Below are positions 1 to 25,158 of a DNA stretch of 25,158 nucleotides, in pieces. The notes under the pieces were generated by a model, which was not told the DNA's origin, made no database searches, and saw only the letters and a list, made by a program, of their open reading frames with translations. Location: the IMG/VR virus record IMGVR_UViG_3300016474_001122, positions 1 through 25,158 of that record. The stretch is one strand, 5' to 3'. Numbering within the stretch: position 1 is the stretch's first letter; each line of letters opens with the position of its first letter. The DNA comes from a virus (Duplodnaviria > Caudoviricetes). The position numbers were made by a program, and so were the translations under genes.

Positions 1-65
1 TTTTTCTCGTTGGTTCTAGGGGTTCAGGTTGGACTATGGGAGCGTGGATTAGAAGAATTATGTTA
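1..65 (+). CDS. 3' end of a hypothetical gene entering from the left edge (FLVGSRGSGWTMGAWIRRIM), ending at TTA 63-65
   Basis: Frame 3 is open from the window start. Its TTA lies 2 nt from the TTA of the convergent gene at 68-70. Only 20 codons are visible. Confidence 0.35.
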
Positions 66-67
66 TA

Positions 68-376
68 TAAACCTGATTTTGCAGTTAGCCCAAGTTTCGA
101 CAATACAAAATTAAGAACATAGGTGTCATCAGCGCCCCAAGAATCGTAATCAGGACCTTCAGCGAGAAGCGCTCCAGCATCGATCTGATTGTCATTCTTG
201 TCATACAACACCCAATGCACATTTGCGCTTCCTTCACTTCCAAATTTATTTATCCACGCCCCTATGACCCTTAGCATGGTTGCGGTTTGTGATAGCACTT
301 GAGTTGGATTTATTTCTATTTGTAGCGGCGGTGAGGTTTCAACTGGATTTGGTATGTCTGTTGGTAGTATTGGCAT
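68..376 (-). CDS. Small tail-fibre-associated hypothetical protein (102 aa, MPILPTDIPNPV...DYDSWGADDTYVLNFVLSKLGLTAKSG)
   Basis: Not in the ORF track because it runs off the window in code 11. ATG at 376 follows AAGGA and the upstream fibre gene. The WGxDDxY...KLGLT C-terminus resembles small phage tail-associated proteins (recollection). First in-frame TTA is at 70-68. Confidence 0.7.
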
Positions 377-391
377 TGTTTATCCTTGTTA

Positions 392-1258
392 TAAATCTGG
401 TCCGACCCACTCTTCCCACTGTTCACATTCAGCGGTCGTAAGTGCTCTATTGTATGCAGCGAATGAACGTATGTAACCTCTAAAATTTCCGTAATTTGAA
501 CCGTAATCTGCCCCCAATGTTGAATATGTTGCTGCGGTTGCAAAATTTCCAGTTCCAACAGGAGTGACTGGTGATCCATCTAGACGAGCAGTATAACTTG
601 TGGCAGAGGTACTGTCCACACCGTCATACGTAACAATCAATCTATGTCTATTTGTGTCTAGTGTTGCTGCGTATCCCACACCTGGGTTTGATGAACCTGC
701 GGGATAAATAAATCTCCAACATAGTGAAGTGTAGCCAGAATAGTTGGATGCATATATATCCGTCATATAATAATTTCCACCACTTTCTCCAACCAATCTT
801 GCCAACAACATAAATTCAGTGCCAGACCCTGGCAATTCTGTGAGTTGGAAATCAAAACATAGTGTCGATGCTCCGGATGTGAATCCCACGTAACCGCTGG
901 GCGCGTATGGCGCAAAATACATACCAGAAGTGTAAGGAGATTCTACGTCGCTTGCAAAATACGCCGAATCTACGGAACTGCCATTCACCGTTATCGCAGA
1001 AGTTTCATATCGCGGTCTTCTTTGAAGTGTACCACCAGTGGGTTCTGCGTGATAGCCATTTGAGCTATCATCCCTCCACCATCCTACTCTATCATTATCT
1101 GCTGGATATCCGCCGCTATTATTTGTATTAATTGACATGTTATTACTCCCATTAGGAGGGGACAACAATATAAATGCGTTGGATGGTGCGGATGGTGCAG
1201 GAGGTCCCGAGGGGGCTGCCTTTCCAAACGCAAATCTTCCTTGGAATGAGCTTAGCAT
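392..1258 (-). CDS. LamG/concanavalin-A-like lectin-domain tail fibre/receptor-binding protein
   Basis: Pro/Ala/Ser linker, then HRLIVTYDG and FRGYIRSFAAYNRALTTAE (LamG-type end motif). Ends TTA-TAA (standard end 389). Confidence 0.75.
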
Positions 1259-1268
1259 GTGATTACCA

Positions 1269-2606
1269 TAAGCCGAATGACGTCAATTGACCTAGCACAT
1301 CGTATGAACCTGACACGTTCAGTATGCTGAATGACACAACGTCTTTCTTATTAGCGGTGCCCGATGGAGCGGCGCTACCTTGCCAGTTCAGGTTAGTTGC
1401 CACGCCGCCAATCTGCACCGCGGTAGGAATGTAAGCCGTAGCGCTTTGCGAGACAATGAGCGTGCATGAAGTTCCGAATCCTGCCGAGGTGTCGAGGTTG
1501 GTGAAGTTTGCCGTCGTCCACGCAGAATCTGGAAGAACGTAGAAAATGTGTCCTGTGGAACAATCGAAGCTCATCGTAGCCACAGAAACAGATCCCGTAA
1601 GAACGTTAAACTTTTCCTTTATCCTCGCCAGATTTGTACTACCATCCAATACGTTCATCGATCCATTCTTGACAGAAAGTGAACCAGTGACTTGTACGTC
1701 TGTAGTATTTACACGTAGTATGTCCTGTCTGACACCAAATCTGCCCGGTGTTCCATTACCAACAACAAATAGTGAATCAAAATTTTCCAACGCATTATGT
1801 GAGCCTATAACATGTTGATATGATCCAGACGCAACGGTTCCATAACCGCCTGCATATGAATAATCACCAAATGCCTTTGTATCCCACCCAGCTGCATGTG
1901 AGTAATTTCCTTCTGCAATACATCCATTTCCTTCCGCATGTGAATAACCTCCCTCTGAACGGGCGGCGTAACCTTCCGCGTGTGAATTTACTCCAGATGC
2001 TATGGAATTAATTCCTTCAGCATGTGAGAAGTCACCACTTGCTATTGTGTATTCTCCCTCTGCATGCGAATAGTCTCCGCTGGCCGTTGTGTTATAGCCC
2101 TCCGCATGCGAGTAATCTCCCGACGCTGTGTTACTGTTGCCTTCACCGTGACAACTAATTCCTATTGTTGATATGTTGATACCTCGTGACAATGATCCGC
2201 TTATTACAATGTCTCCACCAAACAATGAAATTTTTCTTTCCGTTCCTGAAGAAACAGAATTTGATCCGCTAACATAGAAAAATACATCAGATCCTTTATT
2301 TGATGGACTTGTTATTACACCATATTCGACATCACCTCCAACAAATGCAGCGGATCCAGATGTATACAGAGAACCTGTTATTGATGAAAAAAAGAATTGT
2401 TCTGCGTTTGCGCCTTGTGGACCCGTCGGACCAGTGGGACCAGTCGCACCTGTTTGTCCCGTGACGCCTGTTAGACCAGTTGCTCCAGTAGCTCCGGTTG
2501 GACCTGCAGGTCCAGTTGGTCCTGTTGGCCCAATTGTGTTAACAACAGGTGGAGAGCGGTAGAAAGAGTATGTTTTACGTGATCTAGTGGAGTCATAATT
2601 TCCCAT
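1269..2606 (-). CDS. Tail fibre with collagen repeat and YadA-head-like (SHAEG) beta-roll repeats
   Basis: 14 Gly-X-Y triplets, about 8 14-aa ASGxxSHAEG repeats, and a C-terminal phage fibre domain ([19 protein letters not shown]). Ends GGC-TTA-TGG-TAA (standard end 1263). Confidence 0.8.
1815..2155 (-). repeat. Degenerate 42-bp coding tandem repeat (SHAEG 14-mers, about 8 copies)
   Basis: Translation [14 protein letters not shown] / [14 protein letters not shown] / [14 protein letters not shown] etc. Boundaries approximate. Confidence 0.85.
2406..2531 (-). repeat. Collagen-like (Gly-X-Y)14 coding repeat
   Basis: [42 protein letters not shown]. Confidence 0.9.
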
Positions 2607-2718: not shown

Positions 2719-3063
2719 ATGAATTTTGATATTTGTGAATCTATTGAACAAGAAGTTAATTGTGAAACTAAGATTACCAGCAGCGTAGGCATACCTTGGC
2801 CTTCTGGTGATGGTATATTGCACATATATGATGATTATCAACCATTGTTTACGTCGGCAACATGGAGCGTAACTGCAAAATTGAATGGAAAAGTGATAAT
2901 CAACACAATACCAGCTTCAAAGCCACATGATCAAAGATTCATAAAACGTTGGGCACAATTTCTGATAAGAAATAAAAAAGACTGGTTGAGAAATCTTGGT
3001 GTTGATGTATTTTCTGAGTACCTCAAATGGGGTGGAAATATAGAGGATTTGAATGAGCCGTTA
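2719..3063 (+). CDS. Hypothetical protein
   Basis: ATG 2719 follows GAGGAG (2701-2706). The track's longer start at 2680 crosses a TTA. Ends at TTA 3061-3063 just inside the next gene (standard end 3081). Confidence 0.7.
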
Positions 3064-3282: not shown

Positions 3283-4059
3283 ATGAAAAATATCGATTTT
3301 GTCGAACCAGAAATTCATAAATCAGCATCAGATTTTATCGCAGAAATAAGTCGAGTTGATAGGAGTAAGCGTGAAGAAATAATTCTATCTTCGTTGCTCG
3401 AAGGACACGTGCCTTCTCATATGAAATATTACGTAAATGTTACTCAAACCTTCAAAGACTCGACTGGACAGGTTAGAACGTTGGTGTTTAGTGTGTTGCC
3501 TGATTTCTTGTCCATAGGAAATGATGTTGACTACGTCAGAATACCCATGAACCCCTTGACGGCACAGCACATATGTGATGCTTGGGGATGCATGATGCCC
3601 ACCACAAAAATATCTAATATTATTTGGGGTGCTGCAACACATAAATTGCAACCATTGCCTTGGGGGCCACCTTATGATGCATCAATGATGAGCGTTGACA
3701 GAATTGTCGTGCATAACAAGAGAATTCAGGATCAATTGAACAAGATCAGTGATTTTGATCCAAATAGCATTGTTGCAGGACACAAAAAAGACGTTGTGAT
3801 GACCAACAAACTTGCAAAACAACCTGCGCAAGTCGCGATATATGGATGGCACCAATCAAGTGGCAAACCAATTCAACCTCTATATTTGGGACACGAAAAT
3901 ACTTACGCTGATTATTCACATGGTATTAGACTAATTTCTTTGTCTTGTTTGGTTGATGATGTGCCCATGAACATTCAAGACGTTTTGAAAGATAAAAATC
4001 TTTGCGTTGGGATCAGCGATGAAGGTTCGATGGAATCTGCGAGGCAACCGGGAATATTA
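3283..4059 (+). CDS. Conserved hypothetical protein (GHKKDVV, VAIYGWH, YADYSHG motifs), possible enzyme
   Basis: Long ORF with His-containing motif blocks. 18 Leu codons with no TTA, then TTA at 4057-4059 (standard end 4086). Confidence 0.75.
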
Positions 4060-4094: not shown

Positions 4095-4508
4095 ATGAGA
4101 GTAAGACTTTCCGAGCTAAAAAAAATAATTCGTAGTGTCGTTTATGAGTGCTATGGCTGGCCTGTTGAAAAGGAAATGCCACTTTATGGTGTCAAATCTA
4201 AGTCATGGGGTCCTGAAAACTCAGTAGATCCAGCCAATAAGAAGCTCAAGTTGCCAAAAGGTGATAACACCCGTTCAAAGAAAAATTTGAAAGAATCATT
4301 CAATAAGATTACTTCACGTGAACTTGCTGAGTGGTCGGCGGGTAACTATGGTTATATTAATGAAGACGATCAAGCTTCAGATGATGAAGAGAGCGAAATG
4401 AGCGAAATGGATGAAATGGAAGAGGGATCTTGCTCGCAGTGCGGAGGCATGAAGGAAGTTGATGAAGTCACTGGCGAAGCATCATGTTCGGAATGCGGCA
4501 CTTATTTA
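4095..4508 (+). CDS. Hypothetical protein: N-terminal 'RLSELKKIIR' motif, acidic linker, C-terminal CxxC...CxxC zinc ribbon
   Basis: CSQC...CSEC pairs. TTA-TTA follows the last CxxC-GTY directly (standard end 4559 runs up to the tRNA cluster). Confidence 0.7.
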
Positions 4509-4669: not shown

Positions 4670-4752
4670 GGAGGATACGGTCTCTGGGTAGACAACCGGC
4701 CTTGAACACCGGCGATACCGAAAGGTATGTGGTTCGACTCCTCTATCCTCCG
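4670..4752 (+). tRNA. trnS: tRNA-Ser(UGA), 8/4-type cloverleaf
   Basis: Acceptor GGAGGATA/TATCCTCC, D arm GTCT/AGAC, loop CT-TGA-AC (anticodon 4703-4705), variable arm ATACC-GAAA-GGTAT, T loop TTCGACT, discriminator G. CCA not encoded. Confidence 0.85.
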
Positions 4753-4781
4753 CAATTTAGCACATTTGTATTAAATTAAAT

Positions 4782-4856
4782 GGCCTCATCGTCTAAAGGT
4801 TAGGATAGCGGGCTTTCAATCCGTCAATACGAGTTCGAATCTCGTTGAGGTCACCA
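4782..4856 (+). tRNA. trnE: tRNA-Glu(UUC)
   Basis: GGCCTCA/TGAGGTC acceptor, loop CT-TTC-AA (4815-4817), ACGAG-TTCGAAT-CTCGT T arm, encoded ACCA. Confidence 0.95.
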
Positions 4857-4863: not shown

Positions 4864-4948
4864 GCCACTGTGGTTGGAATAGGCAGACACGTTGGATTCA
4901 AAATCCGATGCTCGCAAGGGCGTGAGGGTTCGACCCCCTCCGGTGGCA
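4864..4948 (+). tRNA. trnL: tRNA-Leu(CAA)
   Basis: GCCACTG/CGGTGGC acceptor, TTGGA-TTCAAAA-TCCGA anticodon arm (CAA 4899-4901), long variable arm with GCAA loop, GAGGG-TTCGACC-CCCTC, discriminator A. Confidence 0.95.
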
Positions 4949-4980
4949 CAGTTTACCCACAAATACACATAGGTGTAACT

Positions 4981-5873: not shown

Positions 5874-6327
5874 CAGATTTGTTGGAAATTATTCATTTCT
5901 AAATAATTTTTTTCCTTCTACCATTTATATTAATGGTCAATCATATCCAACCGTAGAACACGCCTACCAGGCACATAAAACCCTTGATCAATTTACTAGA
6001 GAAGTTATTAGGAATGCCAAAGATCCCATGTCAGCAAAAAAAATGGGCAAGGGACTTATACTAAGGGACGATTGGACTCTCATTAAAGTTGACTTGATGA
6101 GAACTTTTATAAAGTTGAAATTTGAAAATCCCATACTAAGAGAATTGTTGTTGGCAACGGGAGAAGCTACGCTAATACAAGAAAATTTGTGGAATGATAA
6201 ATTTTGGGGTGTTACCAAGGGCATTGGTGAGAATTGGTTGGGGAAGATTATTATGGAGGTAAGAGATGAGATACAAGCAGAAATTCTGGCCGATGATCAT
6301 TTGTGCGGCCATGACAATGGCATGTTA
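5860..6327 (+). CDS. NADAR family protein (YbiA-like)
   Basis: FLNNFF, YPTVEHAYQAHK, KFEN..LRELLLATG, DKFWG, GENWLGKIIMEVR are NADAR motifs. GTG start 5860. First TTA after the domain at 6325-6327 (standard ORF 5767-6411). Confidence 0.92.
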
Positions 6328-6524: not shown

Positions 6525-6911
6525 ATGAGTGAGATTAAGCAAGTTATTGTTGTTCGCAAAGACTTGAATATGAGAAAGGGAAAATTGGCATCCCAGGTAG
6601 CACATGCATCAATGAAATTTCTGCTAGATAACAATGAAGCAGAAAGAGGAGATGAAATAGTAATAAAACTAACTCCAGTTGAAGCCATGTGGCTAACAGG
6701 TTCTTTTACTAAGATTGTTGTTGGGATCGATTCTGAGGAAGCACTTAATAATCTGGTTTTTAAGGCTGAAATGGAAGGTATAGAGGTTCACACGATAGTT
6801 GATTCAGGTAGAACAGAATTCAACGGTATTCCTACCTTGACTTGTGCTGCGTTTGGTCCTTGCGAATCCAGGGTGATAGATAAAATCACAGGAAATCTTA
6901 AATTGATGTAA
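6525..6911 (+). CDS. pth2: Peptidyl-tRNA hydrolase, Pth2 family
   Basis: KQVIVVRKDLNMRKGKLASQVAHAS, TKIVV, IVDSGRTEF, TCAAFGP, IDKITGNLKL. GGAGG RBS. Confidence 0.95.
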   Translation: MSEIKQVIVVRKDLNMRKGKLASQVAHASMKFLLDNNEAERGDEIVIKLTPVEAMWLTGSFTKIVVGIDSEEALNNLVFKAEMEGIEVHTIVDSGRTEFNGIPTLTCAAFGPCESRVIDKITGNLKLM

Positions 6912-6961
6912 ATTGAAATGCCAACGGTATAGTATAACAACATACTGACAAGCTAATCAAC

Positions 6962-7034
6962 CCGACCAGGTAGGAGTGGTTCTTCTAACGATTCTTATAA
7001 AGTCGTAACTCTGGTTCAATTCCAGGTGGTCGGA
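6962..7034 (+). tRNA. trnI: tRNA-Ile(UAU) with non-canonical arms
   Basis: CCGACCA/TGGTCGG acceptor, TAGGAG/CTTCTA D stem, ACGATT-CTTATAA-AGTCGT anticodon arm (TAT 6996-6998), TCTGG-TTCAATT-CCAGG T arm, discriminator A. Confidence 0.8.
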
Positions 7035-7076
7035 CAACAAATATTACATGATTCATGATGTGTTATATATTTCATC

Positions 7077-7415: not shown

Positions 7416-7844
7416 ATGAAAAAAATTAGACTAGAATTGAAACCTCATGTTGAATCCAAAACAATCACTCTGTACGATTCACCTGAAGCATTGTATCTTA
7501 ATCTAGAAGACCCAGGTGAAATGGGAGCCATAGGTTCCATCCCGATAAAAATAAATATCGGTGAATTTATAGAAGCAGAATGGAGAGGCTGTGAATTTGT
7601 CAAAGATGGTGATGAATGGATTAGGTTTGATTCGATTAGAATGGCAAAAAACACGCCTACAAAAAATTCATCAGGCTCTTTGGTTAGCATATACTATGGG
7701 TGGGTAAATTCTAATATTTTGTCATTTAATGACAAAGAAGATGCTGACAGTTACACAATAAGATTGCTATCACCCGCAGATTGGAAGATGGATTTGGGGC
7801 TTCTTTTCATGGATGATAAAGAAGATTCTGAAATTGAAAAATTA
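7416..7844 (+). CDS. Hypothetical protein
   Basis: GAGGT RBS. First TTA at 7842-7844 (standard end 7865, TAG). Confidence 0.7.
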
Positions 7845-7877: not shown

Positions 7878-8021
7878 ATGGTGATCACAATTGACGTCAT
7901 GGGAACAGGCGAAGAAGTGCGAGACCTAGAAATCAAAAAGATTGATGAAAAGAAGGAGGAATTGAAGAAAAGAAAATTTGTACTACCCCAAGTAGAAACA
8001 CAATTGATAATTGTGAAATTA
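7878..8021 (+). CDS. Small hypothetical protein (47 aa, MVITIDVMGTGEEVRDLEIKK...)
   Basis: AGGAGAG RBS at 7864-7870. Below the ORF track cutoff. TTA 8019-8021 abuts the stop of the convergent gene at 8022 (standard end 8054). Confidence 0.6.
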
Positions 8022-9257
8022 TCAGTAATATCCCAAACCCAACATATAAATTGATCTCAATTCGCTTTCAGTGAGAACTCTATTCTCAACGCTAGCAGCA
8101 CCTACCCACCCTGGGTATTTACTAAATGCGGTTGGACCTCCTACCATGTATTCTCCCAATGTACTTCCATAATCAATCGTACCAGGTAGGTTGTTTGTTA
8201 CGCCCAACGTTCCATTGTAATAACCTTTTAGGTTTGTGCCATCATACGTTAGTGCCAAAAATTGCCATTGGTCAACTACGAGTCCATAACCACTCGTGTA
8301 TAGTACCGTTGATGTGTAAAGTGTACCACCTTGTGCAATTCCAACAACCCAGTCTGATCCAGAACCACCTGCCTGAAATATGAATCCAACATACGGAGAA
8401 GTTGTTGGCGATCCGGCTGTGTAAACTTTTGAAAAAATCCAAGAGTAATCTGATACAATTTTAAAGGGTTTAAACCATATCCAAGCCGTCATTGTTGTGG
8501 TTGAGGGATTGGCGGGAACAGTCGAGGTCACAAGCGCAGTTGCTGAATTGTCTCTAAGAAAAATGCACGGGCCATACAATCCCGTGCTTCTATATACACC
8601 ACCGTATGAAACAGTCATATTTAGCGTATTTTGTGTTCCAGTGCTATAATACGGCGCAGATGATTCATCAAATTTGAACCTGACTAGGGTGTTACTGTCA
8701 GGGGCAGGATAACGAGTAGGCGCAGCTCCGGTAGCTCCAGTAGCGCCTGTTGGACCTGTTGGACCTGTAGCTCCAGTCGGTCCAACACCTCCTCCACCGC
8801 CACCAATTGTTTTCCATTCTGAACCATTCCAGTACACGGACAAACTTGAATATGCAGTATTTATAGCTTTGTAAGAAGCAGAATCTATCGTAGCACCACC
8901 TGATCCATAAACATTAATTGGTGACACACCAGCGGTTCCAAAAATATCTTTTATATAATGTAGCTGACCAATTCTTGGATTATTTGGAAGATTGACTCGG
9001 GCCGAAGCAAGGTCAATAGAACCACTAATTCCTATTATTGTATCATTACTACTTGCGTTGATAATTCCCAAATTAGAATTATTTGCCTTATATTCTTTAT
9101 TGTTAACTGACAATCTTCCCGTGAGCATGAGCTCTGACGGAACATTGTTGGTGCCGATTTGTACGTCTTCTGGAAATGCAATTCGGCTTATTTTACCGTT
9201 GTTTTCATCCTTCATCATGAGGACGAAAGATTTTTCTGCTTCTTCTTTTGTTGGCAT
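8022..9257 (-). CDS. Tail fibre/spike with short collagen repeat and C-terminal LamG domain
   Basis: Poly-Gly, then (GXT)n. WQFLALTYDG..LKGYYNG and VENRVLTESELRSIY LamG motifs. Confidence 0.8.
   Translation of the reverse strand: MPTKEEAEKSFVLMMKDENNGKISRIAFPEDVQIGTNNVPSELMLTGRLSVNNKEYKANNSNLGIINASSNDTIIGISGSIDLASARVNLPNNPRIGQLHYIKDIFGTAGVSPINVYGSGGATIDSASYKAINTAYSSLSVYWNGSEWKTIGGGGGGVGPTGATGPTGPTGATGATGAAPTRYPAPDSNTLVRFKFDESSAPYYSTGTQNTLNMTVSYGGVYRSTGLYGPCIFLRDNSATALVTSTVPANPSTTTMTAWIWFKPFKIVSDYSWIFSKVYTAGSPTTSPYVGFIFQAGGSGSDWVVGIAQGGTLYTSTVLYTSGYGLVVDQWQFLALTYDGTNLKGYYNGTLGVTNNLPGTIDYGSTLGEYMVGGPTAFSKYPGWVGAASVENRVLTESELRSIYMLGLGYY
8721..8783 (-). repeat. Collagen-like (Gly-X-Y)7 coding repeat
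   Basis: [21 protein letters not shown]. Confidence 0.85.
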
Positions 9258-9270
9258 CTTATATTACTCG

Positions 9271-13350: not shown

Positions 13351-14486
13351 AAATAAATCATGCCTCCAAAGGCTATCGAGTCAGTGCCAACCATGACGTT
13401 ATTATCATAATCCCAACCCGTTGTTGCTGACCTTTGTTTATTAGATAGATAGTTTTCCGTGCTTCCTGACATTGAGTTAAGGGCTGTTTTCATATCAATT
13501 TCGTAAGATCCTGTAAGGCCAGTAATTGTCTTTGATATTACAATATCGTCATAAGGTTTCAATTTCGTAGTTTCATTAATAAAGTAACCTGCGATGGGCA
13601 AACCAGTTTTTGTTACTTCTATCAAGTCCAAAAATGGAACAAAATCCGGGATGGATTCAAATTCATAAACGGTACAAACTTGGTCTGATGCTCTCTTGTA
13701 ATTTGGATTTCCTGACATGACATCCCCTCTAACGTCATGTGATTCAAACGGAAAATCTATGCTGGAGAATGTAGATTTTGCTCTAATTGTAAGAGGTTCT
13801 ATCGCACCATCAAACGCATAATTATATGTTATGTCATTGTCAATAACTTGATAGTTTCTTTCTCTTACTTCCAATATTATTTCTTGTTGACTATTGATGT
13901 ATGTAATTGGATTGAATTTTGATTTATTGTCAACGTAATAATCTACGTAATTTGACATATCGTAATCCGAACCAAAATTACATTTTCTTATAATGTGACC
14001 AACTTCACCAGCGTGAATTTTGACCATCATTCCATCCACAAAGTGACTAAACTTAGTCATTTCTACGCCTTGCCTATAACCATCAAATTTGCTAGTGTCT
14101 ATGCTAGATGTATTGACGTATATTGGTGTCGCAGTCTTTTTTGTTGATTTGTAAACTTGTTTTTGTGAACCTAGTACGGTTGGACTTTCCGCGAAAGTAT
14201 TATTTTTATTTACTGTTGCGCCATTCTGAAAAAAATTTGTGATTTGTTCCGCAGGAGTTACTTTTACAAATCCATTTTTTTGAATTATCGCATCGCTAAT
14301 TTCTGTTTTCGTAGCTGTCGTTTTTATGTCTGGGACTTGTTGCGCAGCATACTCAGAATAGTTACTTTGAAATGGTTTACTTACAGTGGTGTCATTACTT
14401 TGTGCGGCAATGGTTGCTTGTTCAACGTTATCAAAAGCTTTGTCACTAACGTATGTTTCTTTTTCTTGAATTTCGTTGTATGGCAT
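13350..14486 (-). CDS. Hypothetical virion/baseplate protein
   Basis: Ends GTDSIAFGGMIY then TTA, overlapping the next ATG by 1 nt (TTATG). The standard end at 13290 would overlap by 61 nt. Confidence 0.7.
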
Positions 14487-14487
14487 G

Positions 14488-17400
14488 TTAGTATTTCTTT
14501 ATGTTTCCAACGACTTGTTGTAGTAGCAACACGTCCTTAATTTTATTTCTGTCTGACTCTCCAAGATATATCTCTGAAGAATAGTATTCCAGCTTATTTC
14601 TCTCCAACATGTGAGATTCAATTACAAAATTTGTTCCTTTAAATTTTGTTTTTCTTGGAATCAATTGATCAATGATTGTCCCAATTGACCTGTCAAACCA
14701 TCTAAAGAAATTAAAGAATCCTTGAAAGTTAATCTTTTCACTAATTCGATTGAAATATATTTCTCTCAATTTTGCTAGATCGGGATAATCTGGTGAATAG
14801 ACTAGTTCAGGTGAGCCCAAGGCACTCTCAATTGTTTCAAATGTTGAAAACATTGTAACTATATCTTTATTCAACGAGTCTATGATTGAAAATTCTATTG
14901 ACAATCTGACATCATCGCTTGGTTTTTCTGAGGGATTCAATTCATTCACAGGTGCAGGCATTGCCCAAGGTTTTTCTTTTACAAGATCATAATCTTGATA
15001 TCCTCTAATTCTTATTTTTTCTGATGATGATGCCTCATCAAAATAAGGAGAAAGGTAACTATGATCGAATATTTCTCCTACTAGCGTTTGCTTATCAATT
15101 GGAAAGCCTGTGCCTGAAACGTGCAAATTATTCAAGCTAAAATCTAGGAATTTTATTGTTCCCAAATTTCCCAACGCGATATCGCTATTTGCGGTTCTTA
15201 CTTCTTGCTTCATTAGTGAATCTAGACGTAGTCTTTCCCAAGAACCCGTAGCGTTACTAACAAAATTCCAATTGCTATACGGATTATTCACCCCAAGAGA
15301 TTTATAATTTAGAATATGTTCCTTCCACTCAGATGCACTAAAAGATTTTGACCAAAATCTTAGGTTTGATACCTTACCATTAAAGGAAGTAATTCTTGAA
15401 GTGGTAGGAGAACGCACTGAGTCACTTAGAAATTTATAAGAAGGACCAGCATTAAAACTTTGATTATTGCCTATCGCAATATATGTTCCAGAAGCATTGT
15501 AAGTTGCGTTTATTGTTCTGAACACATTATCTTCAGCATACGGAGTTTCTTCGAAATATGATGAGGTTGTTTGATACCACGTCATTTCTCCATTAAGCTG
15601 TGAACCTGCTCTTAGATAATAAGATGATGAAACCCTAGAGCCAATGGAGTCATTTCTTGTGCATCCAAATGATATATTCCATCTGGATTCATCGAATAGG
15701 CCCATTGAAGGCATGGGCAATTCTAGTTTAAACAACGGAGAGTTACTATTAGTACCGGGTCTAACGTATAGTTCTATCCTAGAGCCTGATGATGAATATA
15801 TGCTTATTAGATTTGCAACACAAGACAATCCATCAGAACCTGTTACAAACATTCTACACAAACTTTGTTTGTCTGAATCTTGAAAAAAGTCCAAATTTTT
15901 TGGAAGATACTTGTATATTGCTTCTACACACCACGAACCAGAGGTTAGCAGACCATCGTTTATATTGTCTGAGACACCATGTGGTGGAAATTGTTTTTTA
16001 AATACCATATTCCCAATTGGATTTGGGTAACCTATTTCAATTCTAGAAGATGAAAGAAATGGTGTTATAGCAAGAGAAGACGTGGTAAATTGTGCCATCG
16101 CTCCGGCGTCTTGTTTTTTCTCTCTTGAATATGTCAATTGACGTTTTGTAGGTCCACCATATTCTCTTATTCTTAGAGAATTCTCGGGATCAATACCGAT
16201 TGAACGCAAAAATGATTTAATGGAATGTTGAGTGCCTTTCGATCTTAGTATGTCAGGTAGATTTATTAGCACTCTTTTTAGCAATTCATTTTGTATGTAC
16301 TTTAGTGGATATGTTGATGTTGCAATTTCTTCACCTATATTTTCAGCATCAACATATTGTTCGATGCTTGAATTTGTAAAAAGAGGAGGTATGTGAAATC
16401 CATTTTGTTTTGCAAGATCGAAAAGAAAGTTTTTTGGCATATTATCTACGCCAGCATAATCAACGTATCCATAATTTCCGAAAGTATCAATCGATATTTT
16501 AATTTCATCAAAAAATTTTGCCCATATGTAAAGAAATGATGCGATTATTTGTGATGAATTAAGTTTTCCTTGACCAGGAATTCCAGTGCCAGAGTAAGGC
16601 GTAAATGACTCATTATCAACGTTAATGCCCACTCCATCTTGAACTTCAGCTTCAACAAAATAATGTTGTGGAATTAGTCTGGTAATCAAATTAGGATTTT
16701 GTTTGTCATATTCAGAGGCCGAAAGCAACAAATCATTATTCAATGAAACTACACCGGGATATGCTGGGAAAAGAACGGGATAAGTTTCTGACTTTTCATA
16801 TATCATAAGGCTATTTTCATCAGTTGATGCATCTTGTCTCAAACTACCTGTGTAGTTTGTTATCAATGCATGCAATGAATTCCCGGAACTATCAAGAACT
16901 ATTGAATTTACTGGATCTGTAGAGATTGGTGTCAGGGGAGGTGGAGGCTCATTGAATCTGTAATAAAGTTTTAGTTCAGGAGACGCGTATATTGCTTTCT
17001 TCTCAAATAGTTTTTGTTGCTTTTCTGTTCTTATACCGTGAAAAATTCTAAATTCATCTATGCTTCCACTGAATGTTTGAGCAGGTACAAAATTTCCTCC
17101 ATCAATTGTTATTGTTGTACCCGTTCCAATCAAAATTTCTGATTGGCTAATTCCCATATCACCAATTTGATATTTGCTCTTTGATTTTTGTTTTAGTTCA
17201 GAATTTACAAAAAATTCTGCATAATCAACGCCACTACTTCTATTTAGCGTTGCACAAATATGATTAAATTTACCTTTTTCAAGAGTTACAAATGTAGTGA
17301 TATTTTTGTTATCATTGATTACGCTAAATGATACGTTGGCTTGAGTAACTGAAGTAGATTGGGAAACGTACAATGAAATTCCGTGTTTACTATCAGATGC

Positions 17401-17976
17401 TTTTTGAAAAATTACCTGATTATCATTGGCTTGTTCTGGTAGAAATACATGTGTTTCAATTGTGAATGATTTGTCACCACCGGGATCTATGATGGGATCT
17501 CCTGATTTTTTGCTCGATATATCTGGGTAAAGAAATCCAGCTTGGTCTTTAATTTTTATCCATGTTCCCAGTGTGCCATCATCATCTTCACCCGTAAGGG
17601 TTCCGGAAAAATGCAATTGACCCTTATATTTTGGGAAATTATCAAATACCCATTTTTCAAATCCAGTCAATTTTTCAAAGAATTTTTCAATTTCTTGTCT
17701 CGTACCATCAAATGGGTAACCATTAATAATTTGATCAAATGCAAGATTTACCTTAGCTTCTGCTGAAGAAAAAAAAGTATGATTTTCAAATTTTGACCAA
17801 TCAACATCTAGTTGCTGAGTATTTTTTATCGGATAACCAACCGGATCATACAGAAATGATGACGTGCTAGAAAAATTCGTGTTCTGCAGGTCACTAAATG
17901 ATGTCTCTGTTGTTTTGTTGTCCTCTAGCGCATGTTTTATGAATGAGGGAATGTAAGGTGAAATGTTGACTGGCAT
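14488..17976 (-). CDS. Baseplate wedge protein (gp7/tail-I-like) with LamG domain
   Basis: FSGSIDEFRIFH LamG motif. LINLPDILRSKGT..SIKSFLRSIG..LRIREYGG wedge-type motif. Lies downstream of the gp6-like gene. Confidence 0.7.
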   Translation of the reverse strand: MPVNISPYIPSFIKHALEDNKTTETSFSDLQNTNFSSTSSFLYDPVGYPIKNTQQLDVDWSKFENHTFFSSAEAKVNLAFDQIINGYPFDGTRQEIEKFFEKLTGFEKWVFDNFPKYKGQLHFSGTLTGEDDDGTLGTWIKIKDQAGFLYPDISSKKSGDPIIDPGGDKSFTIETHVFLPEQANDNQVIFQKASDSKHGISLYVSQSTSVTQANVSFSVINDNKNITTFVTLEKGKFNHICATLNRSSGVDYAEFFVNSELKQKSKSKYQIGDMGISQSEILIGTGTTITIDGGNFVPAQTFSGSIDEFRIFHGIRTEKQQKLFEKKAIYASPELKLYYRFNEPPPPLTPISTDPVNSIVLDSSGNSLHALITNYTGSLRQDASTDENSLMIYEKSETYPVLFPAYPGVVSLNNDLLLSASEYDKQNPNLITRLIPQHYFVEAEVQDGVGINVDNESFTPYSGTGIPGQGKLNSSQIIASFLYIWAKFFDEIKISIDTFGNYGYVDYAGVDNMPKNFLFDLAKQNGFHIPPLFTNSSIEQYVDAENIGEEIATSTYPLKYIQNELLKRVLINLPDILRSKGTQHSIKSFLRSIGIDPENSLRIREYGGPTKRQLTYSREKKQDAGAMAQFTTSSLAITPFLSSSRIEIGYPNPIGNMVFKKQFPPHGVSDNINDGLLTSGSWCVEAIYKYLPKNLDFFQDSDKQSLCRMFVTGSDGLSCVANLISIYSSSGSRIELYVRPGTNSNSPLFKLELPMPSMGLFDESRWNISFGCTRNDSIGSRVSSSYYLRAGSQLNGEMTWYQTTSSYFEETPYAEDNVFRTINATYNASGTYIAIGNNQSFNAGPSYKFLSDSVRSPTTSRITSFNGKVSNLRFWSKSFSASEWKEHILNYKSLGVNNPYSNWNFVSNATGSWERLRLDSLMKQEVRTANSDIALGNLGTIKFLDFSLNNLHVSGTGFPIDKQTLVGEIFDHSYLSPYFDEASSSEKIRIRGYQDYDLVKEKPWAMPAPVNELNPSEKPSDDVRLSIEFSIIDSLNKDIVTMFSTFETIESALGSPELVYSPDYPDLAKLREIYFNRISEKINFQGFFNFFRWFDRSIGTIIDQLIPRKTKFKGTNFVIESHMLERNKLEYYSSEIYLGESDRNKIKDVLLLQQVVGNIKKY

Positions 17977-17988
17977 TTTTTCCTGCTA

Positions 17989-19527
17989 TAATTGTGAGTT
18001 GCTAACTTTAAAGATTGGTGATACATTTTTATAAAGTTGGTATTCGCCTCCAATTAGAATTTTTATGTCAATTACGTAACTTTGTTCCTTGGCGAGATTT
18101 GATGTATCCACCCTAAAAAACATTCCCTTTGAATCACAAGAAACTCTTGTCGATCCTTTCAACGTATCAAATGGAATTACTACCTCTTGTGTATTTGAAT
18201 TTCTTATGCTATAAAAAGCACTTGTGACGATTCCCTGAAGGGCACCGGGTGATTCAACTGGGACTCTTGAAAGTTCGATTAGAGGTGATGTATAATCAAA
18301 TATGTTTACTCTAACGGGTATAATTTCATTATCTCCATGTATTGAATTAACGCCATAGATTGAAACATTGAATTTTTTAGGAGACAAATTAGAAGATCCT
18401 CTTGATATCACAGAAGGCGTAGAAAACTTGACTTGAGAACCTGTGTGATAAGCGACCTTACCATCGATCGATCCCCAAATTGGCGTCAGTTTTATCGTAC
18501 TGCCCGTTGATATAAGCGAATTTATAATATACTGATTACTAGACGACAAATAAATTGAGGCGGAGTAAACGCCTGTCATAAAATTTTTGCCGGCGGCATG
18601 TTGACTACCCGTAAAAATAAATTCTTCCACACCACCAGATTTTTCAAGTTGCAACTTTAGAATTATGCAATTACTTCCAGTTATTTGGATGTTATTGCTC
18701 CCTGAAGTTAGATTGCTTAGATTACCATGATCATAATTCCAAAGAAACATAGTTTCCTTAGAATCAAAGGTCATTCCTTGCGACGTGTCAATTATCGAAT
18801 CATCAAAACCAACTTCAAGTCTTGGATGCTTAGATTCATTGTATGCATGTCTTGATGCAAATCTTTTAACAAAGTAAGTGTAATTATTGTTTTCTTCAGA
18901 AGGTGAAAATGCTATTCTAAATCCTGAATCCGGTATTTGATTTGACAACGTGCTGGATATTGCTTTAGTTACATCTACGTACAAATCTTCTTCACCTGAT
19001 GTGAAGTATTGTGTTGTAGACAATTGACCCGTTGTCATAGATCCTGTGATATAATCACACAAATCATCAATAGTACCAGATTTATAACAGCCAATTTCCT
19101 TCCAAGTATTATTAGGAACAGAGGCGGTAACAAAATTACAAACATCCTTATCGCTGTAAAGGACTACGTCCTTACCTCTTCCTTCGTCAAATGACGCTGA
19201 GAGAGGCGATACTGCGATTGTATAATTGTTGGGTGTGGGTTGTCCTCCATATACATCAAATAGTTTTATTCGTGCAAAAAAACTACTGTGTGTGTAATCT
19301 ATTGAACCTGAAGACACCAATCCTCTCAATTCAGAAATGTCGAAGTGTATCAATATTCTTGACAATTCTCTTAGAGGAGTGCTACCGGACATCGACATTC
19401 CGTACAATTTGTAAAGATCAAGTGAACTAGCCAATCCTACATTTGAATTATAAGAGCCGGAAATTTTTCCTTTTATCACCTTATTTGTAATGTAGGTGTC
19501 TTTATCTGCTTTGAATACTTTAAACAT
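17989..19527 (-). CDS. Baseplate-associated structural protein (DNRLRE-like N-terminus)
   Basis: ADKDTYIT...SRILIHFD...HPRLEV pattern. TGATG coupling with the upstream gene. Ends TTA-TAG (standard end 17986). Confidence 0.65.
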
Positions 19528-21371
19528 CAGATTGCCTTTCCAACAATGTCAACTTCAGGATATCTAATTTCAAATATTCCTCCTGGTGGTGGGATGATTA
19601 CGCCTTTTTTAATGTTGTTTTGAACATCAAAAGTATAATCACTATAAGTTCTGTTATTGACTATCCCGTTCACATTTTTGAACAATTTGTTTTGATCGTA
19701 ATCAATTGACAATACTCCATTCACAGAAAATATCGTATTGATAACTTCCGATATTATTATTGGCTGATCAATGTGAAAATTTCTAATATCAAAGAAATTT
19801 TGCAACCTGTTGAGTATCTGTTGCAACAGGATGTTTTTATTCATACTTGGGTCAATTACAACATTGAATTGCAATTTCAAATTAATAACAATTGCATCCA
19901 AGATATCAATCGCATCAGATATCATTCTATATGGATCCAAATATTTGACCAAATTTTGTTTAAGAGTGTCTGATGATGTTGTCAATAGTTTTTGATCTGG
20001 TGATCTTGAAATTATGAAAAGTTGAGTTGCTAGAGGGTTATTTGGATTTGATCTTACAGTCGCTCTAAATACTCTACCAAAATTTGAAGGTAGAGTGTAT
20101 ACCCTCGCCAGCAAATCTTCTTTTGTTACGATTCTTTCTTGGGAATTTTTAACTGTAGGTATTAGTTGTCTTAGATCTTCAATTGTTGGAGAATCTTCTC
20201 CTCCACTCGCAGGTGATAGATTTGAAACTTGAATTGAATTTCTTACTGCTACAGCAAATTGCAAAGGCGGATTTTGAGGAAAAAATACGTTAATTGCTTT
20301 TATATTTCTTACACTATCTACAGGAACGTTGTGACTCAAACCGCCACCATATCTATAGGTTATATTCAGGGTCACGTCAGTGGCCGCTACGCCCAAAGTA
20401 TTCGTTTGTAGCAATTTTTGTGGATTGACAGAAATTCTTGAAAAGGTTTTTGTGTATGGAAATGAAATTGCAAATTCTGATGGATCAGGTATTACGTCAT
20501 CTTCAATTGTGTTTGCATTCCCACCACCAAATGTAAGAACTGTTTTTCTGTTTGAAATTTCAGTATTTGATATGAACCTGTAAGGAGCAGGAATTATTTT
20601 TATTGATTCTGGGACTATGCTGTTATCTTTTGACGTGTTTATAACATTTTTGTAAACTACGTCGTGTGTAAGAGCCTTTACTTCATAGTAAATATTTCCA
20701 GAGGTATCACTAACATTGACTACTTCTGTAACGTTAGGATTAGTCAACATTATTTGCCTAAATGGCACAAATGTTGACCCAATCACAAAATTTTCTGTTG
20801 TTTGTTTACCTGAAACGCAAACACCAGTTAGGGCCATAATATATGACGTTATCACTCCAGATGGAGACTTTGAACCTACTTTAATTTCAGCTTTATAACT
20901 ACCGTCAGAATTTGTCTTTGAAAAATCTACATCTTCAAGCAATATAAAATCAATATTACCAGTTGTGAAAATGCTATCAGCTAGCACTCTAGGGATACAA
21001 TCACTTCTTGGTGATGAACCAGTCGAATCTGCCGGAACTTCTATATAAATTGTTACTTGAACGGTAGCGGGTGAAGATCCAACTATGGGAACTCCTGCCA
21101 TACGTAGATGTTTTTGAATGTTGTTAGTTTCAACCGCAGTTTCATAATTTATCTCTCCATATTGATGGTCGAGATAAAATGACATGTTGTCACCAACATA
21201 TGCAGCCATATCCAAAAACAAACCTCCCAAAGAAGATTCAGAAAAATCTTTAAGTTTGTCTGGGTAATATGATTGCGCATATTCTAGAATTTGAGCTCTT
21301 AGCGCATCAAAGTCCTTTGCAAGATATTTTCTTTGTCTTACCGGTATTATATCAGTTTTCTTTAGCGCCAT
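19527..21371 (-). CDS. Baseplate wedge subunit (T4 gp6/baseplate J-like)
   Basis: KDFDALRAQI...DFSESSLGGLFLDMAAYVGDNMSFYLD, YRYGGG, ASGGED, QERIVTKED motifs. Confidence 0.9.
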   Translation of the reverse strand: MALKKTDIIPVRQRKYLAKDFDALRAQILEYAQSYYPDKLKDFSESSLGGLFLDMAAYVGDNMSFYLDHQYGEINYETAVETNNIQKHLRMAGVPIVGSSPATVQVTIYIEVPADSTGSSPRSDCIPRVLADSIFTTGNIDFILLEDVDFSKTNSDGSYKAEIKVGSKSPSGVITSYIMALTGVCVSGKQTTENFVIGSTFVPFRQIMLTNPNVTEVVNVSDTSGNIYYEVKALTHDVVYKNVINTSKDNSIVPESIKIIPAPYRFISNTEISNRKTVLTFGGGNANTIEDDVIPDPSEFAISFPYTKTFSRISVNPQKLLQTNTLGVAATDVTLNITYRYGGGLSHNVPVDSVRNIKAINVFFPQNPPLQFAVAVRNSIQVSNLSPASGGEDSPTIEDLRQLIPTVKNSQERIVTKEDLLARVYTLPSNFGRVFRATVRSNPNNPLATQLFIISRSPDQKLLTTSSDTLKQNLVKYLDPYRMISDAIDILDAIVINLKLQFNVVIDPSMNKNILLQQILNRLQNFFDIRNFHIDQPIIISEVINTIFSVNGVLSIDYDQNKLFKNVNGIVNNRTYSDYTFDVQNNIKKGVIIPPPGGIFEIRYPEVDIVGKAI

Positions 21372-21426
21372 TTACTCACCATTTATCTGTAATTATTTCA
21401 GTGTCCTAATAGACAACCTACACAAA

Positions 21427-21903
21427 TTACATAGCATATAGATTAATTTCTAGTTGTCCATTGGTGTATTCAAGAACAGGGATGCTATATGTAATTTTTA
21501 TATTAATGTGTGCTATAGAGTTATCATTCTTATCGTGACTTATTGTCGATGCATAATTTTCCAATGAAATATATGGCATCCAACGACTAACAGCACCAGA
21601 AATTTTTTCAATCGCCTTTGAATCAAAGTCGTCATCTGATATAAGCTCAGACATAGTGGGTTTCAAATTTGCGCCAAAGTCATACAACCCCACCCGTTCA
21701 CCCCAATTTGTCAAAATCAAGTTTCTTAGATTGTCTCTGGTTGTTTCAATCAAATTGTCGTATGTGATAAATATTTCTCCTTGTCCGGACTCATTTATTT
21801 GCAATGGAGTTTTTATACCAATGGGAGTTTTTTTACTCTCTAGTTGTTCTACGACTTTTTGTTCTTGCGTTTTACCTACGCTTTTAAAGTTATAAGTTGC
21901 CAC
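21427..21903 (-). CDS. Baseplate gp25/GPW-like protein (sheath initiator)
   Basis: DNLRNLILTNWGERV..DFGANL and VSRWMPYI. GTG start. Directly upstream of the gp6-like gene. Confidence 0.9.
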   Translation of the reverse strand: MATYNFKSVGKTQEQKVVEQLESKKTPIGIKTPLQINESGQGEIFITYDNLIETTRDNLRNLILTNWGERVGLYDFGANLKPTMSELISDDDFDSKAIEKISGAVSRWMPYISLENYASTISHDKNDNSIAHINIKITYSIPVLEYTNGQLEINLYAM

Positions 21904-21914
21904 GATTTAAATAA

Positions 21915-23588
21915 TAACTCTTGTGTTGGATTTGCAGATTCTTCAAGAACAAAGTCCGGGTTCCAAATTTTAGTTATCAATTTTGTTTTTGAAATTTTAC
22001 TAATAATTGAATTAGGTTTCCACGCACTCATATATTCTTTTTTATAAGCACGTTCTACAAGCTTATCCAGGTCTACCCAACCCAAAAGAATTGTATTACT
22101 TGGATTACTAGACTGTAGGTTGGCACCTTCTCCATTATCACCAACAAGTGTTCTTGTGTCCGGATGATAACTTTTTCTAACCCATGCTGTTTGTTGATTT
22201 GATGCAGGACCTTGACCAGCGTCCGCTGTCACAACTGAAATTTTACCACCATCAACCTTAACATCAGAAATAATACCAATGTGTGTAACATCATTTTTAC
22301 CTCTATTTCCAACAAAATAAATATCGCCAGATTTTGGTATCACGTCTCCCTTTGCAGGAACGTATGCACGAGCATATTTTCCTGTTATATAAACGCCTTG
22401 TGGGCCTGGGACAAGTGACAATTTTGATATATTATCTGGATTGGTGATGTCAGACAAGTCAAAATTTGGATCTTCCTTAACAAAATCCGAAAACACTGCG
22501 GCAGGAAGCATTCCACAAGTTGTCACTTTACTTCCTTTTATTATTCCTTCTGGAGCTGGGCCTGGTGTATATGTTGGCCACAAAGCCTTTCCGTTAGGGT
22601 GTGCACCAGGTTTTGCAACTGATTGTCTTCCTGAGTAATAAATTTCCTTACCTACTGTTCCCCATTTATTTTCCGGTCCCATATATTTTCTCAAAGAATT
22701 TAGAAATTTTTTCCTCACCCTTGTCAGATCTTCTGCACCTTTTTCTTTTGGTGGATTTTTTGCGAATTTGAAATAATCAGCCAAAAATCCCGTTGCACCT
22801 TTCCTACCCCCATCACCAATAACCTTTGCGGTGGCAGCAATTATTGCAGCTTGACCTGTGAACGTTGAAAGATCTTGAACAGCAACCACTTTAGTGAAAT
22901 CCCCAGGTTCACTTGGACCAAACATTTGTTTTTCTATTGCTTTTTCAATTGCAAAACAAGGATCAGGTATTGGAAATAGATTTAGCAAAATCTTCGGATC
23001 AAGAAGACTAAGCGCAATTTCAATAGCAACCTTTGGTAGTTTCAAAGCCCAAAGATCAAATTGAAACTTTTGATCAAAATTTGGTGGAAGATTGATACTA
23101 AGATCAATTTTTGGTTCTGGAATGTTGAACTTGGGAGGTACTTCTGGAATTAGCAGCGGAGGTACTTTCAATCCAAATTCCAAGGGAGATAGATCAAAAA
23201 TTAGCGCTAGTTCAGGCAACGTTATTATCGGAAGATCTAGAATGTTGAAATCAATGTCTGGTATGTTAAGGGCAACACTCAACGCAAAAGGATCTATAAA
23301 TGGGGGTGGCAATGAAAAACTGCCTTGAACGTCTAGAGCACGTGCAACATCTCGATATGTATTCATAATGACAGAATAAAATTCTGGGTACTTTTCCCTA
23401 TTTTCAAGATCATCAGGTATTAGGCCCGGTATGGGATTTATCAATTTACCTGTTTGACATGGGAATGGTGACGCACCTGCAAAACCTTTTTTGCCTATTT
23501 CCTTATATCGTTCTACGGTTGCATTTATAAATGCCTCTGTCAATTCATTATTTTCTAGCACACCTGTGCTATGCATAACGCCTGTCAT
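21915..23588 (-). CDS. Baseplate-associated protein with Pro/Leu-rich region and C-terminal CHAP/NlpC-P60-like amidase domain
   Basis: TTCG(Cys)...PKSGDIYF...THIGII(His)...DAGQG...LLGWVD. Ends TTA-TTA 11 nt before the gp25 start (standard end 21876 overlaps gp25). Confidence 0.6.
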
Positions 23589-23600
23589 GATATACCTCTA

Positions 23601-25103
23601 TAATTTAGCCCCAGTAACCAGTATCTTTTTAGCCCAAGTGCCTTGAGTTTTAATTCCCGTTCCACCAAACTTCCCTCCCATTGTGTTAGTAAGGGCGGGC
23701 GTTGTGGGATCAACTTCACCAAGACCTGACAATTTTGCAGGAAGATCTGTGCACAATAGTGCTCTGTCTGCGCTATCGTCTCCCAACTTAATGAAACCTT
23801 CATCTGATGGTTTAAAAACAATATCCCCATTACTTTTTATTATTATTGTTGAAAATAGATTCTTGTCTGTATTTTCAATAAACTCTCCAGCTGGGTTTGT
23901 GAACCCACCGGATACCATAATTTCAACGTCCTGTCTGGCTATAATTCTAACTTTGTCTGATTTAATGATAATTGCTCCATCGCCATTTGGACCATCTGAT
24001 ACATTGAAATTTTCTTCATTATGTTGAAATATTCCCAAACCACTATCTACAAATGTTTTTTGTGACAAAAGAATTCTACTTTTGTCACTAAACCAATCAG
24101 GATCTCCTTCAAATTGTTGCAATTTTGAAGGCATTTTTTCAAGTTCTTCTTTAAAGTTTGTTCCATCTGATATTTTCTTTGATGTTGCAACATTACCAGA
24201 AGTAGTTTCGGTTTGACCTCTGCCTACAACAATGTCAATTGCACCCGCGGCCCCTTTATTTTCTATAGCGTCTGAGACTGGTGTGATAGGAATCTTTCCT
24301 TTTGCTGAACCTTCTTGAACGTAGTTTGAAGCAGGCCCTATTCTATTTGTTCCCAAAGAAATTAGGGTATTATTACTACCCTCCAGGACTAGATCGGCAG
24401 GTCTTTTTCGATATCTTGGAACTGCCTCATAAGTGGTTACTTTTGATGCATCTGAATCTGTCAATAGGCTTTCGTACGCATTTGATTCTGCACCATTTAC
24501 ACCTCTCAAAACGGTAGTTTCAGGTATTGTATATCTTTGTCCGTTATCTTCTCCAGCTCTACCATTTCTAAATTCATAAATTGCGTCAGTATTTCCTTGA
24601 AATTTTTCTTTTGTGCCAGGCAAAAATGTTGATTCAAAAGCCCTAGGAGGATGTGTGTGATTAACGTCATCTACGTAACCAATTTCTGTTATTTTACAGA
24701 ACCAATAACCAATGTCCATTTTTATTGAACCTGGTGCTTCGAACATTACCCAGACGTGCTCTCCTGCTTTACATGGCAGTGCTAGGTGAGATGGAAAGAA
24801 TGGAAACAGAATCATTGGAGTTTCTGAAGCGGTTGACAAACCGTCAGATATTCTTTGTCCAATTATTGCATTTCTAGGTGGGTATGCAGCATACTTTATG
24901 TTAGATACGCCCAATGCCTCCCAATATGCAACTTTGTCAGTGTCAATTATTTGTGGATCAAATATTACATCTAGTACAACGTATCGATAAAAATTAGGAT
25001 GTTGATTTGTTGAACCTTGAAAATATGTCGCTCTTTCCTTTAGTATTCTTTCAGCATTACCTTCAGCAAAGTGCTTATCAATCTTTTCATATCCATTTTT
25101 CAT
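23601..25103 (-). CDS. Baseplate hub/central spike protein (gp5/VgrG-like)
   Basis: FPFFPSHLALPCKAGEHVWV OB-fold-like motif, DLVLEGSNNTLISLG, short beta-strand repeats at the C-terminus. Upstream of gp25. Ends TTA-TAG (standard end 23598). Confidence 0.65.
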
Positions 25104-25158
25104 AATCCACCACTCTTTATTCTTTCAAACATTTCTTCAGGATTAATTTCATCGCTTG
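25103..25158 (-). CDS. 3' end of an upstream gene (...SDEINPEEMFERIKSGG)
   Basis: Open frame ending GGA-TTA-TGA and overlapping the ATG at 25103. Confidence 0.5.

Follow-up and report, generated by a model that had tools for sequence, protein, structure and literature searches.

TTA codons inside genes and at gene ends

The subject of this analysis is a stretch of 25,158 nucleotides (nt) of viral DNA (IMG/VR record IMGVR_UViG_3300016474_001122, positions 1 to 25,158; hereafter the window), a piece of the genome of a large tailed phage, an uncultured freshwater jumbo phage, with a guanine-cytosine (GC) content of 37.5%. It encodes gp25-like and gp6-like baseplate wedge proteins, LamG proteins, collagen/YadA fibre proteins, a NADAR protein, a PTH2-type peptidyl-tRNA hydrolase and four tRNAs. 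A first reading of the letters by themselves (the sequence-only reading) had proposed that the codon TTA (UUA in the mRNA) is reassigned in this phage from leucine to stop. Our results make it very likely that TTA is a fourth stop codon of the window phage.

We counted codons in 23 credible genes comprising 7,925 sense codons, a gene set drawn with TTA as a stop. Leucine is encoded 523 times, by TTG (208), CTA (149), CTT (110), CTG (33) and CTC (23), and never by TTA; the earlier statements that credible genes hold no internal in-frame TTA, and that the other five codons serve leucine despite the low GC content, are thus both correct. The same genes end in TTA 13 times, in TAA five times and in TGA five times. 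None of the 23 genes has TAG as its first stop; this codon is present only behind TTA and is also rare in relatives. Codons ending in A prevail in most other codon boxes, and the triplet TTA is common out of frame in the 23 genes, with 238 copies in one of the other frames and 163 in the second. The internal uses of TCA (316) and TTG (208) indicate that UCA and UUG keep their standard meaning. In-frame TAG or TGA was not seen inside genes: the frames of 1359 and 1162 amino acids (aa) are open under genetic code table 11, and TGA is among the gene ends.

Two further tests did not assume that TTA is a stop. In the first, the genes were extended from the same starts to their table-11 ends, and the last 30 codons then made up 690 of 8,087 codons. 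All 19 in-frame TTAs of these frames lie at most 28 codons from the standard stop (binomial p = 4.9e-21), which is the outcome that a count by relative gene position should give if UUA is a stop. In the second, table-11 open reading frames (ORFs) of at least 200 aa were taken from their first ATG and the first and last 30 codons were skipped. The bodies of the 12 ORFs hold 0 TTA among 397 leucine codons, and TTA is found in 8 of the 12 tails.

The 15 TTAs named in the sequence-only reading are all present on the strand assigned to them. Thirteen close complete genes and two (63 on the + strand and 25103 on the - strand) belong to genes cut by the window edge:

63..65, + strand: TTA closing a frame open from the left edge of the window, gene status uncertain.
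68..70, - strand: TTA ending a 102-aa protein; no homologue reached the end.
392..394, - strand: TTA TAA (tandem stop) ending a 288-aa LamG protein.
1269..1271, - strand: TTA ending a 445-aa collagen/YadA-head tail-fibre protein.
3061..3063, + strand: TTA ending a 114-aa protein (2719-3063); the homologues stop in the same column (1 of 5), one residue later (3) or three earlier (1).
4057..4059, + strand: TTA ending a 258-aa protein (3283-4059); TAA in this column in 2 of 3 homologues.
4506..4508, + strand: TTA TTA ending a 137-aa protein, after a zinc-ribbon-like CxxC..CxxC end (Pfam match below cut-off).
6325..6327, + strand: TTA ending the NADAR gene (5860-6327); read-through would add 28 residues with 3 further TTAs.
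7842..7844, + strand: TTA ending a 142-aa protein.
8019..8021, + strand: TTA ending a 47-aa ORF; abuts the TGA of an opposite-strand LamG gene.
13350..13352, - strand: TTA ending a conserved 378-aa protein (13350-14486); TTATG overlap with the ATG of the 1359-aa gene.
17989..17991, - strand: TTA TAG (tandem stop) ending a 512-aa protein; homologue ends scatter mostly between -3 and +3 and are uninformative.
21915..21917, - strand: TTA TTA ending a 557-aa protein; 11 nt separate it from the next start, against a 28-nt overlap under table 11.
23601..23603, - strand: TTA TAG (tandem stop) ending a 500-aa protein.
25103..25105, - strand: TTA ending the edge-cut gene; TTATG overlap with the next start, and an in-frame TGA follows.

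Four of the 15 (392, 17989, 23601 and 25103) stand directly before a standard stop and are therefore weak evidence taken alone. The tail of the NADAR gene was said to hold four TTAs, which is right if the stop itself is counted. The TTAs that were reported in false 5' extensions also exist, at 2695, 5310 and 5791; the positions originally quoted for them (2680, 5295 and 5767) are instead those of the false GTG, GTG and TTG starts. Calling genes again with TTA as a stop makes the spacing between stops and starts regular: five operon gaps then measure 10-15 nt, an overlap of 61 nt turns into a spacing of -1, and one of 28 nt into a spacing of +11. As a side observation, a T directly follows all 15 TTA stops, compared to 47% (236/501) of the standard stops in relatives (p ~1e-5; p 5e-4 for the roughly 10 TTA stops in which neither an overlap nor a tandem stop forces it).

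Stop columns of homologous genes

Alignment of homologue C-termini places TAA and TGA in the TTA column of the 378-aa gene, where a stop is found in 78 of 88 distinct DNA homologues (duplicates removed). The motif FGGxx[YHF] is the exact C-terminus in 117 of 119 homologues of the protein, and the other two go on with leucine, for 1 and 17 residues. The codon after this motif in 150 DNA matches is TGA 77 times, TAA 64 times, TAG once, another sense codon seven times and TTA once, the last being the window itself. Many relatives carry TAATG or TGATG where the junction of the 378-aa and 1359-aa genes reads TTATG in the window.

For the remaining genes fewer homologues reach the end, and four window genes have none that does. 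The homologue of the 25103 gene in locus L083 ends in TGA after a matching ...ERIKKGG, all seven NADAR homologues fall short of the window TTA, by 1 to 6 or more residues, and the single homologue that reaches the end of the 557-aa protein extends three residues further.

The TTA ends might also reflect an artefact or an indirect route to a standard stop, namely assembly error, editing of UUA(U) in the RNA, or a frameshift onto an overlapping stop. It is contigs that lie behind the comparison, neither raw reads nor RNA, and no RNA-holding sequencing run is listed for the window. However, TTA 13350 is unchanged in independent data: a run X5 contig, from another study, covers 13250-13450, and its listed differences are only at 13401 and 13419. 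Run X4 has no contig over this interval, the contig of run X2 stops 14 nt beyond TTA 13350, and run X1 may be the one from which the window itself derives. In addition, other phages share the pattern. Out of frame, window genes contain TTAT 151 times, which makes editing or cleavage of this motif unlikely, and the U at position +4 makes the +1 frame UAU and the -1 frame NUU, neither of which is a stop. We regard this explanation as extremely improbable.

Related phages

Alignment searches for relatives gave 234 loci, among which two other genomes behave like the window, L016 and the lineage of L002. In L016 (GC 0.385), an 807-aa frame is divided by a TTA, its codon 419, after which comes TCA ATG; relatives have two separate genes instead of this frame, of about 414-418 and 384-386 aa. 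We take the split genes to be glycosyltransferase-like. Three further TTAs stand at gene ends of L016, one of them as TTATG. The L002 lineage (L002, L003, L087 and L156; GC 0.48) has 0 TTA among 490 leucine codons and three TTA ends, one of which comes after ...KILVK, where most homologues end. One TTA is in mid-frame in a 76-aa ORF of this lineage (L254:3752-3982, - strand), an ORF that overlaps its neighbour's read-through tail and may not be a gene.

These comparisons also bear on the idea that TTA is merely avoided, or is a rarely read leucine codon, with short variable tails behind it or a conditional read-through switch. Most read-throughs past the window TTA ends are indeed short (0-27 codons), and high-GC relatives such as G001, the nearest near-complete relative (309 kb, 91% complete), avoid TTA and yet read it as leucine, with 30 internal uses in 77,228 codons. 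Avoidance, however, would place TTA neither in the stop column of homologues, as in the 378-aa gene, nor between two genes, as in L016, and relatives with the GC content of the window, about 37%, use TTA for a median of 37% of their leucine (60 related loci with a GC content of 0.36-0.39, including duplicates). This makes the idea very improbable. Loci L151-L154 (GC 0.39-0.42) use TTA for only 4% of leucine and are possibly intermediate in the loss of TTA.

A maximum-likelihood tree of five genes (14 taxa, 2,896 columns) joins L016 and L002 (ultrafast bootstrap 100) as sister to L083 and L157 (100), phages in which TTA is leucine. The window is separated from them by a branch of 97 and is grouped with L001, L022 and L155, in which TTA is likewise leucine. 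A single clade of TTA-stop phages was rejected (log-likelihood difference 73.6, p-AU 3e-5) in an approximately unbiased (AU) test based on a fast constrained search with 5,000 replicates, which we list as a caveat against our interpretation. Since the three TTA-stop phages do not form one clade, the code was either gained at least twice in the family or gained and lost.

Six public proteins of the family (P0002, P0069, P0124, P0139, P0144 and P0148) have a trailing leucine or a leucine-led tail past the ends of their homologues, and the phages that they come from are candidates for further TTA-stop phages, judging by these tails. The DNA pattern of the 378-aa end followed by TTA had a sole match, L235, which was dropped as unrelated and TTA-rich.

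Origin of the window and its other features

The window DNA is natural: in a public record, the 378-aa gene stands on a contig of 37,406 nt with a read-through protein of 398 aa. When 5200-25158 is divided into 30 bins, contigs from four runs of four studies (lagoon, reservoir, aquaculture and estuary) cover 28-30 of them with a likeness of at least 85%. Among annotated phages, matches of only 27-31% were obtained for the wedge protein and none for the 512-aa protein, so that comparison yields no isolate or host; the latter protein also has no relative in GTDB contigs, and as a single-protein query it had no match in viral contigs. Leaders of the form GGAG or GAGG (Shine-Dalgarno-like) precede several window genes, from which we infer that the host of the window phage is probably a bacterium. 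The features other than the TTA ends are as follows:

4670..4856, + strand: tRNA-Ser(UGA) and tRNA-Glu(UUC), reading TCA (316 uses) and GAA (335); Rfam confirms the Glu tRNA only.
4864..4949, + strand: tRNA-Leu(CAA), reading UUG, the main leucine codon, and not UUA.
4975-5322, + strand: Cys-rich lipoprotein-like ORF, start codon uncertain.
6525..6911, + strand: PTH2-type peptidyl-tRNA hydrolase.
6962..7035, + strand: tRNA-Ile(UAU), reading ATA (268 uses).
8022..25103, - strand: baseplate/tail operon (gp25-like protein, gp6-like wedge, LamG proteins), in which the 1359-aa and 1162-aa frames are without TTA.

None of the four tRNAs within the window is a tRNA-Leu(UAA). TCA and GAA are the main serine and glutamate codons of the window phage, and the four codons served by its tRNAs (TCA, GAA, TTG and ATA) are presumably scarce in GC-rich hosts. 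Homologues of the PTH2 gene also occur in relatives that read TTA as leucine, and it is therefore not specific to the UUA code. The atlas clusters nearest to the lipoprotein-like ORF are mostly from Myxococcota, with scores of 0.75-0.82, and are a lead only. G001 (L248:8801-8949 and L251:8775-8850) has amber- and ochre-reading tRNAs, two with CUA anticodons and one with a UUA anticodon, its code being otherwise standard.

What happens at UUA and what reads it

The depletion of TTA, the stop column of homologues, the gene spacing and the two related phages together support the claim that UUA terminates translation, and we are highly confident, as far as genome comparison can tell, that UUA triggers peptide release. 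It could instead be that UUA is unassigned: ribosomes would stall there because the host lacks a matching tRNA, and a rescue route (ArfB-like release, or drop-off with the help of PTH2) would free the chain. A PTH2 gene is present in the window, the leucine tRNA of the window reads UUG only, four of the 15 TTAs are backed directly by a standard stop, and in Streptomyces and the phages infecting it UUA acts as a hungry codon (PMC10732093). The occurrence of PTH2 in TTA-reading relatives counts against this explanation, as does the fact that TTA is the commonest end (13/23) and closes large structural genes. Tagging by transfer-messenger RNA would destroy the products, and drop-off of chains of 300-550 aa is inefficient. 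Because structural genes and TTATG overlaps end in TTA, a clean release is needed, and we consider an unassigned UUA quite unlikely.

As for the reader of UUA, no release factor is encoded within the window. A phage-borne reader would be a variant of the short class-I release factor of the family, or another factor, with the host tRNA-Leu(UAA) removed; it would also truncate host proteins containing TTA. The short class-I release factor (with PPT and GGQ motifs and without domain 1) is widespread in jumbo phages, at 354 viral loci, and was read in 83 (the best 80 of the 354, plus 3). Most of the 83 have a prfB-type site consisting of a Shine-Dalgarno sequence and a CTT-stop +1 frameshift, in which the sensing stop is TGA, TAG or TAA. 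The factor is encoded by G001 (L236), where it adjoins a NADAR gene and a tRNA array, and by 3 of 35 further records. Release factors on phages also accompany stop-to-sense recoding, according to bioRxiv 10.1101/2021.08.26.457843, and a mobile gene could account for the scattered tree. On the other hand, G001 reads TTA as leucine, one of its internal uses lying within the release-factor gene, and many of the 83 loci use TTA for 10-40% of leucine. A version of the frameshift site with CTT-TTA was not found (two pattern matches, both by chance). Moreover, TTA ends non-structural genes such as NADAR, which are probably expressed early, before such a factor could act. A phage-borne reader is thus conceivable and, in our judgment, rather unlikely.

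The reading to which we lean, with little more than even confidence, is that UUA is read as a stop by an RF2-type factor of the host, and that the code is set by the host and was adopted by phage lineages. Since UUG stays the main leucine codon, and a change of the RF1 type should have captured UUG along with UUA, the reader should be RF2-like: an altered RF2-type release factor in a host likely lacking tRNA-Leu(UAA). The U at +4 of all 15 TTA stops would probably strengthen a weaker stop. Repeated gain in separate phage branches makes a host-set code the simplest account. Phage lineages moving onto such a host would have purged TTA from gene bodies, and at gene ends TAA and TGA would have drifted to TTA after the move.

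Several observations weigh against this interpretation or parts of it, and they are gathered here. Homology does not support two of the TTA ends: past the TTA of the 137-aa gene, the only homologue (1/1) runs on for at least 6 residues, and so do 13 of 15 matches past that of the 142-aa gene. A U at +4 is not the rule in the related TTA-stop phages (2 of 4 in L016, 0 of 3 in the L002 lineage). The window is 25 kb long compared to 309 kb for the near-complete relative, and a phage-borne factor may lie elsewhere in the genome. The lead to Myxococcota as the host phylum consists of weak atlas scores below 0.9, and the myxobacterial screens, which were samples and did not cover RF1 systematically, found no UUA-stop host. 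RF2s read from 96 genomes without a tRNA-Leu(UAA) motif (see below) all keep SPF or SPY (96/96). A pattern for Cys, Gly or Trp variants of RF2 had 12 chance matches in 401 Polyangia and gave no CPF or GPF RF2. Finally, the one group with a reshaped RF2 that these screens revealed, described below, keeps tRNA-Leu(UAA), in 4 of 4 genomes read and in 14 of 15 by DNA match.

The tRNA screen covered 401 Myxococcota genomes and is the only sample reaching classes other than that of genome G041. The tRNA-Leu(UAA) arm motif GACTTAAAATC was missing in 102 of the 401, a screen that over-calls absence because many genomes have a GATT arm; the 96 RF2-read genomes above belong to these 102. In 93 of the motif-negative genomes, contig pieces no longer than 20 kb were inspected and no clear TTA-stop genome emerged, although this test has little power should TTA ends be rare. 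A GTDB-wide RF2 pattern in which a codon starting with C or G replaces the serine (Ala/Gly-type) had 49 matches, the sole myxobacterial one by chance. The normal-SPF pattern was without a match in 14 of 401 Polyangia and in 35 of 401 genomes of the order of G414; of 30 tRNA-motif-positive genomes without a match in a normal-SPF screen, a part was followed up. In one follow-up set, RF2 was not found with the query in 14 of 30 genomes. Genomes G705, G729, G886, G1029, G1103 and G1112 enter the RF2 tallies as normal-motif rows only.

The readable RF2s among the normal-SPF non-matches come mostly from a group of at least 19 myxobacterial genomes in the class and order samples around G041 and G414 (G784, G790, G814 and G750, i.e., L602-L605, and L697-L711). 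In this group the codon-reading loop of RF2 is reshaped, with SPF changed to SKF or SRF and a deletion of three residues. One member, G790, uses TTA inside genes. Metagenome-assembled genomes of Armatimonadia (L361, L374, L383 and L388) have an RF2 in which GPF replaces SPF, a substitution that is associated in organelles with UUA as a stop, and yet TTA is internal as leucine (in the SecA-like and transporter genes of L374); a GPF change alone therefore does not reassign UUA.

Taken as a whole, the scenario in which a free-living bacterial lineage made UUA a stop, and two or more branches of a single jumbo-phage family separately rewrote their genomes to match, seems to us evenly balanced between true and false. 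UUA as the commonest stop of a phage would imply a bacterial ribosome terminating at UUA, and the idea of a relaxed RF2, which comes from organelles, becomes testable in bacteria. If true, a UUA-stop host would suggest a natural genetic firewall or host-range barrier, since phages rich in TTA leucine codons could not grow there. There is also a consequence for annotation: the 378-aa gene is on public file with 398 aa, and L016 shows that false gene fusions arise.

Comparison with known systems

The sequence-only reading spoke of a candidate new genetic code. The part that stands is the reading of UUA as a stop, whereas the codon table itself is not new: it is NCBI table 23, which differs from table 11 here only at TTA and in which UUG stays leucine. 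The feature is real, and is a known codon table in a new domain. Table 23 is an organelle code, and the window comes from a phage of what appears to be a bacterium (Shine-Dalgarno-like leaders, baseplate genes). In the open-licence PMC and bioRxiv literature, UUA as a stop was found only for mitochondria and plastids, and the code changes of phages there are all stop-to-sense.

In the mitochondria of Thraustochytrium and Labyrinthulea (table 23), UUA is a stop and Ser204 of mtRF2a is changed to Ala, Gly or Cys. PMC12574857 describes UUA as the only new stop where mtRF2a is altered, UUA and UCA as stops in peDinoflagellate plastids with an altered pRF2, and UUA and UUG as stops in Marsupiomonadales mitochondria with an altered mtRF1a. 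The same paper calls the plastid change the first of the sense-to-stop kind beyond mitochondria, and indicates that UUA and UUG are both captured when an organellar RF1 is altered, while an altered RF2 can capture UUA alone. As UUG stays leucine in the window, this points to an RF2-type reader. Like the peDinoflagellate and Marsupiomonadales cases, the window phage has UUA only at 3' ends defined by homology, and its kind shows false gene fusions under the standard code. Unlike them, it keeps UCA and UUG as sense codons (316 and 208 internal uses), with UUA alone changed.

Among phages, those with stop-to-sense codes (codes 4, 15 and 25; Lak, crAss-like, Jade and Agate phages) likewise depart from table 11 and have several origins in a family. 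Their change runs in the opposite direction to the sense-to-stop change of the window, which involves no suppressor tRNA; the text of bioRxiv 10.1101/2021.08.26.457843 has 0 occurrences of TTA or UUA. In Streptomyces, UUA is under bldA control, and UUA-led bypassing takes place in the terminase of phage phiHau3 (PMC10732093). UUA is thus a special, scarce codon in phage translation there as in the window phage. In the Streptomyces system, however, it is a conditionally read leucine codon inside genes, whereas in the window it is absent from the inside of genes and stands at their ends, none of the 19 in-frame TTAs being more than 28 codons away from the standard stop.

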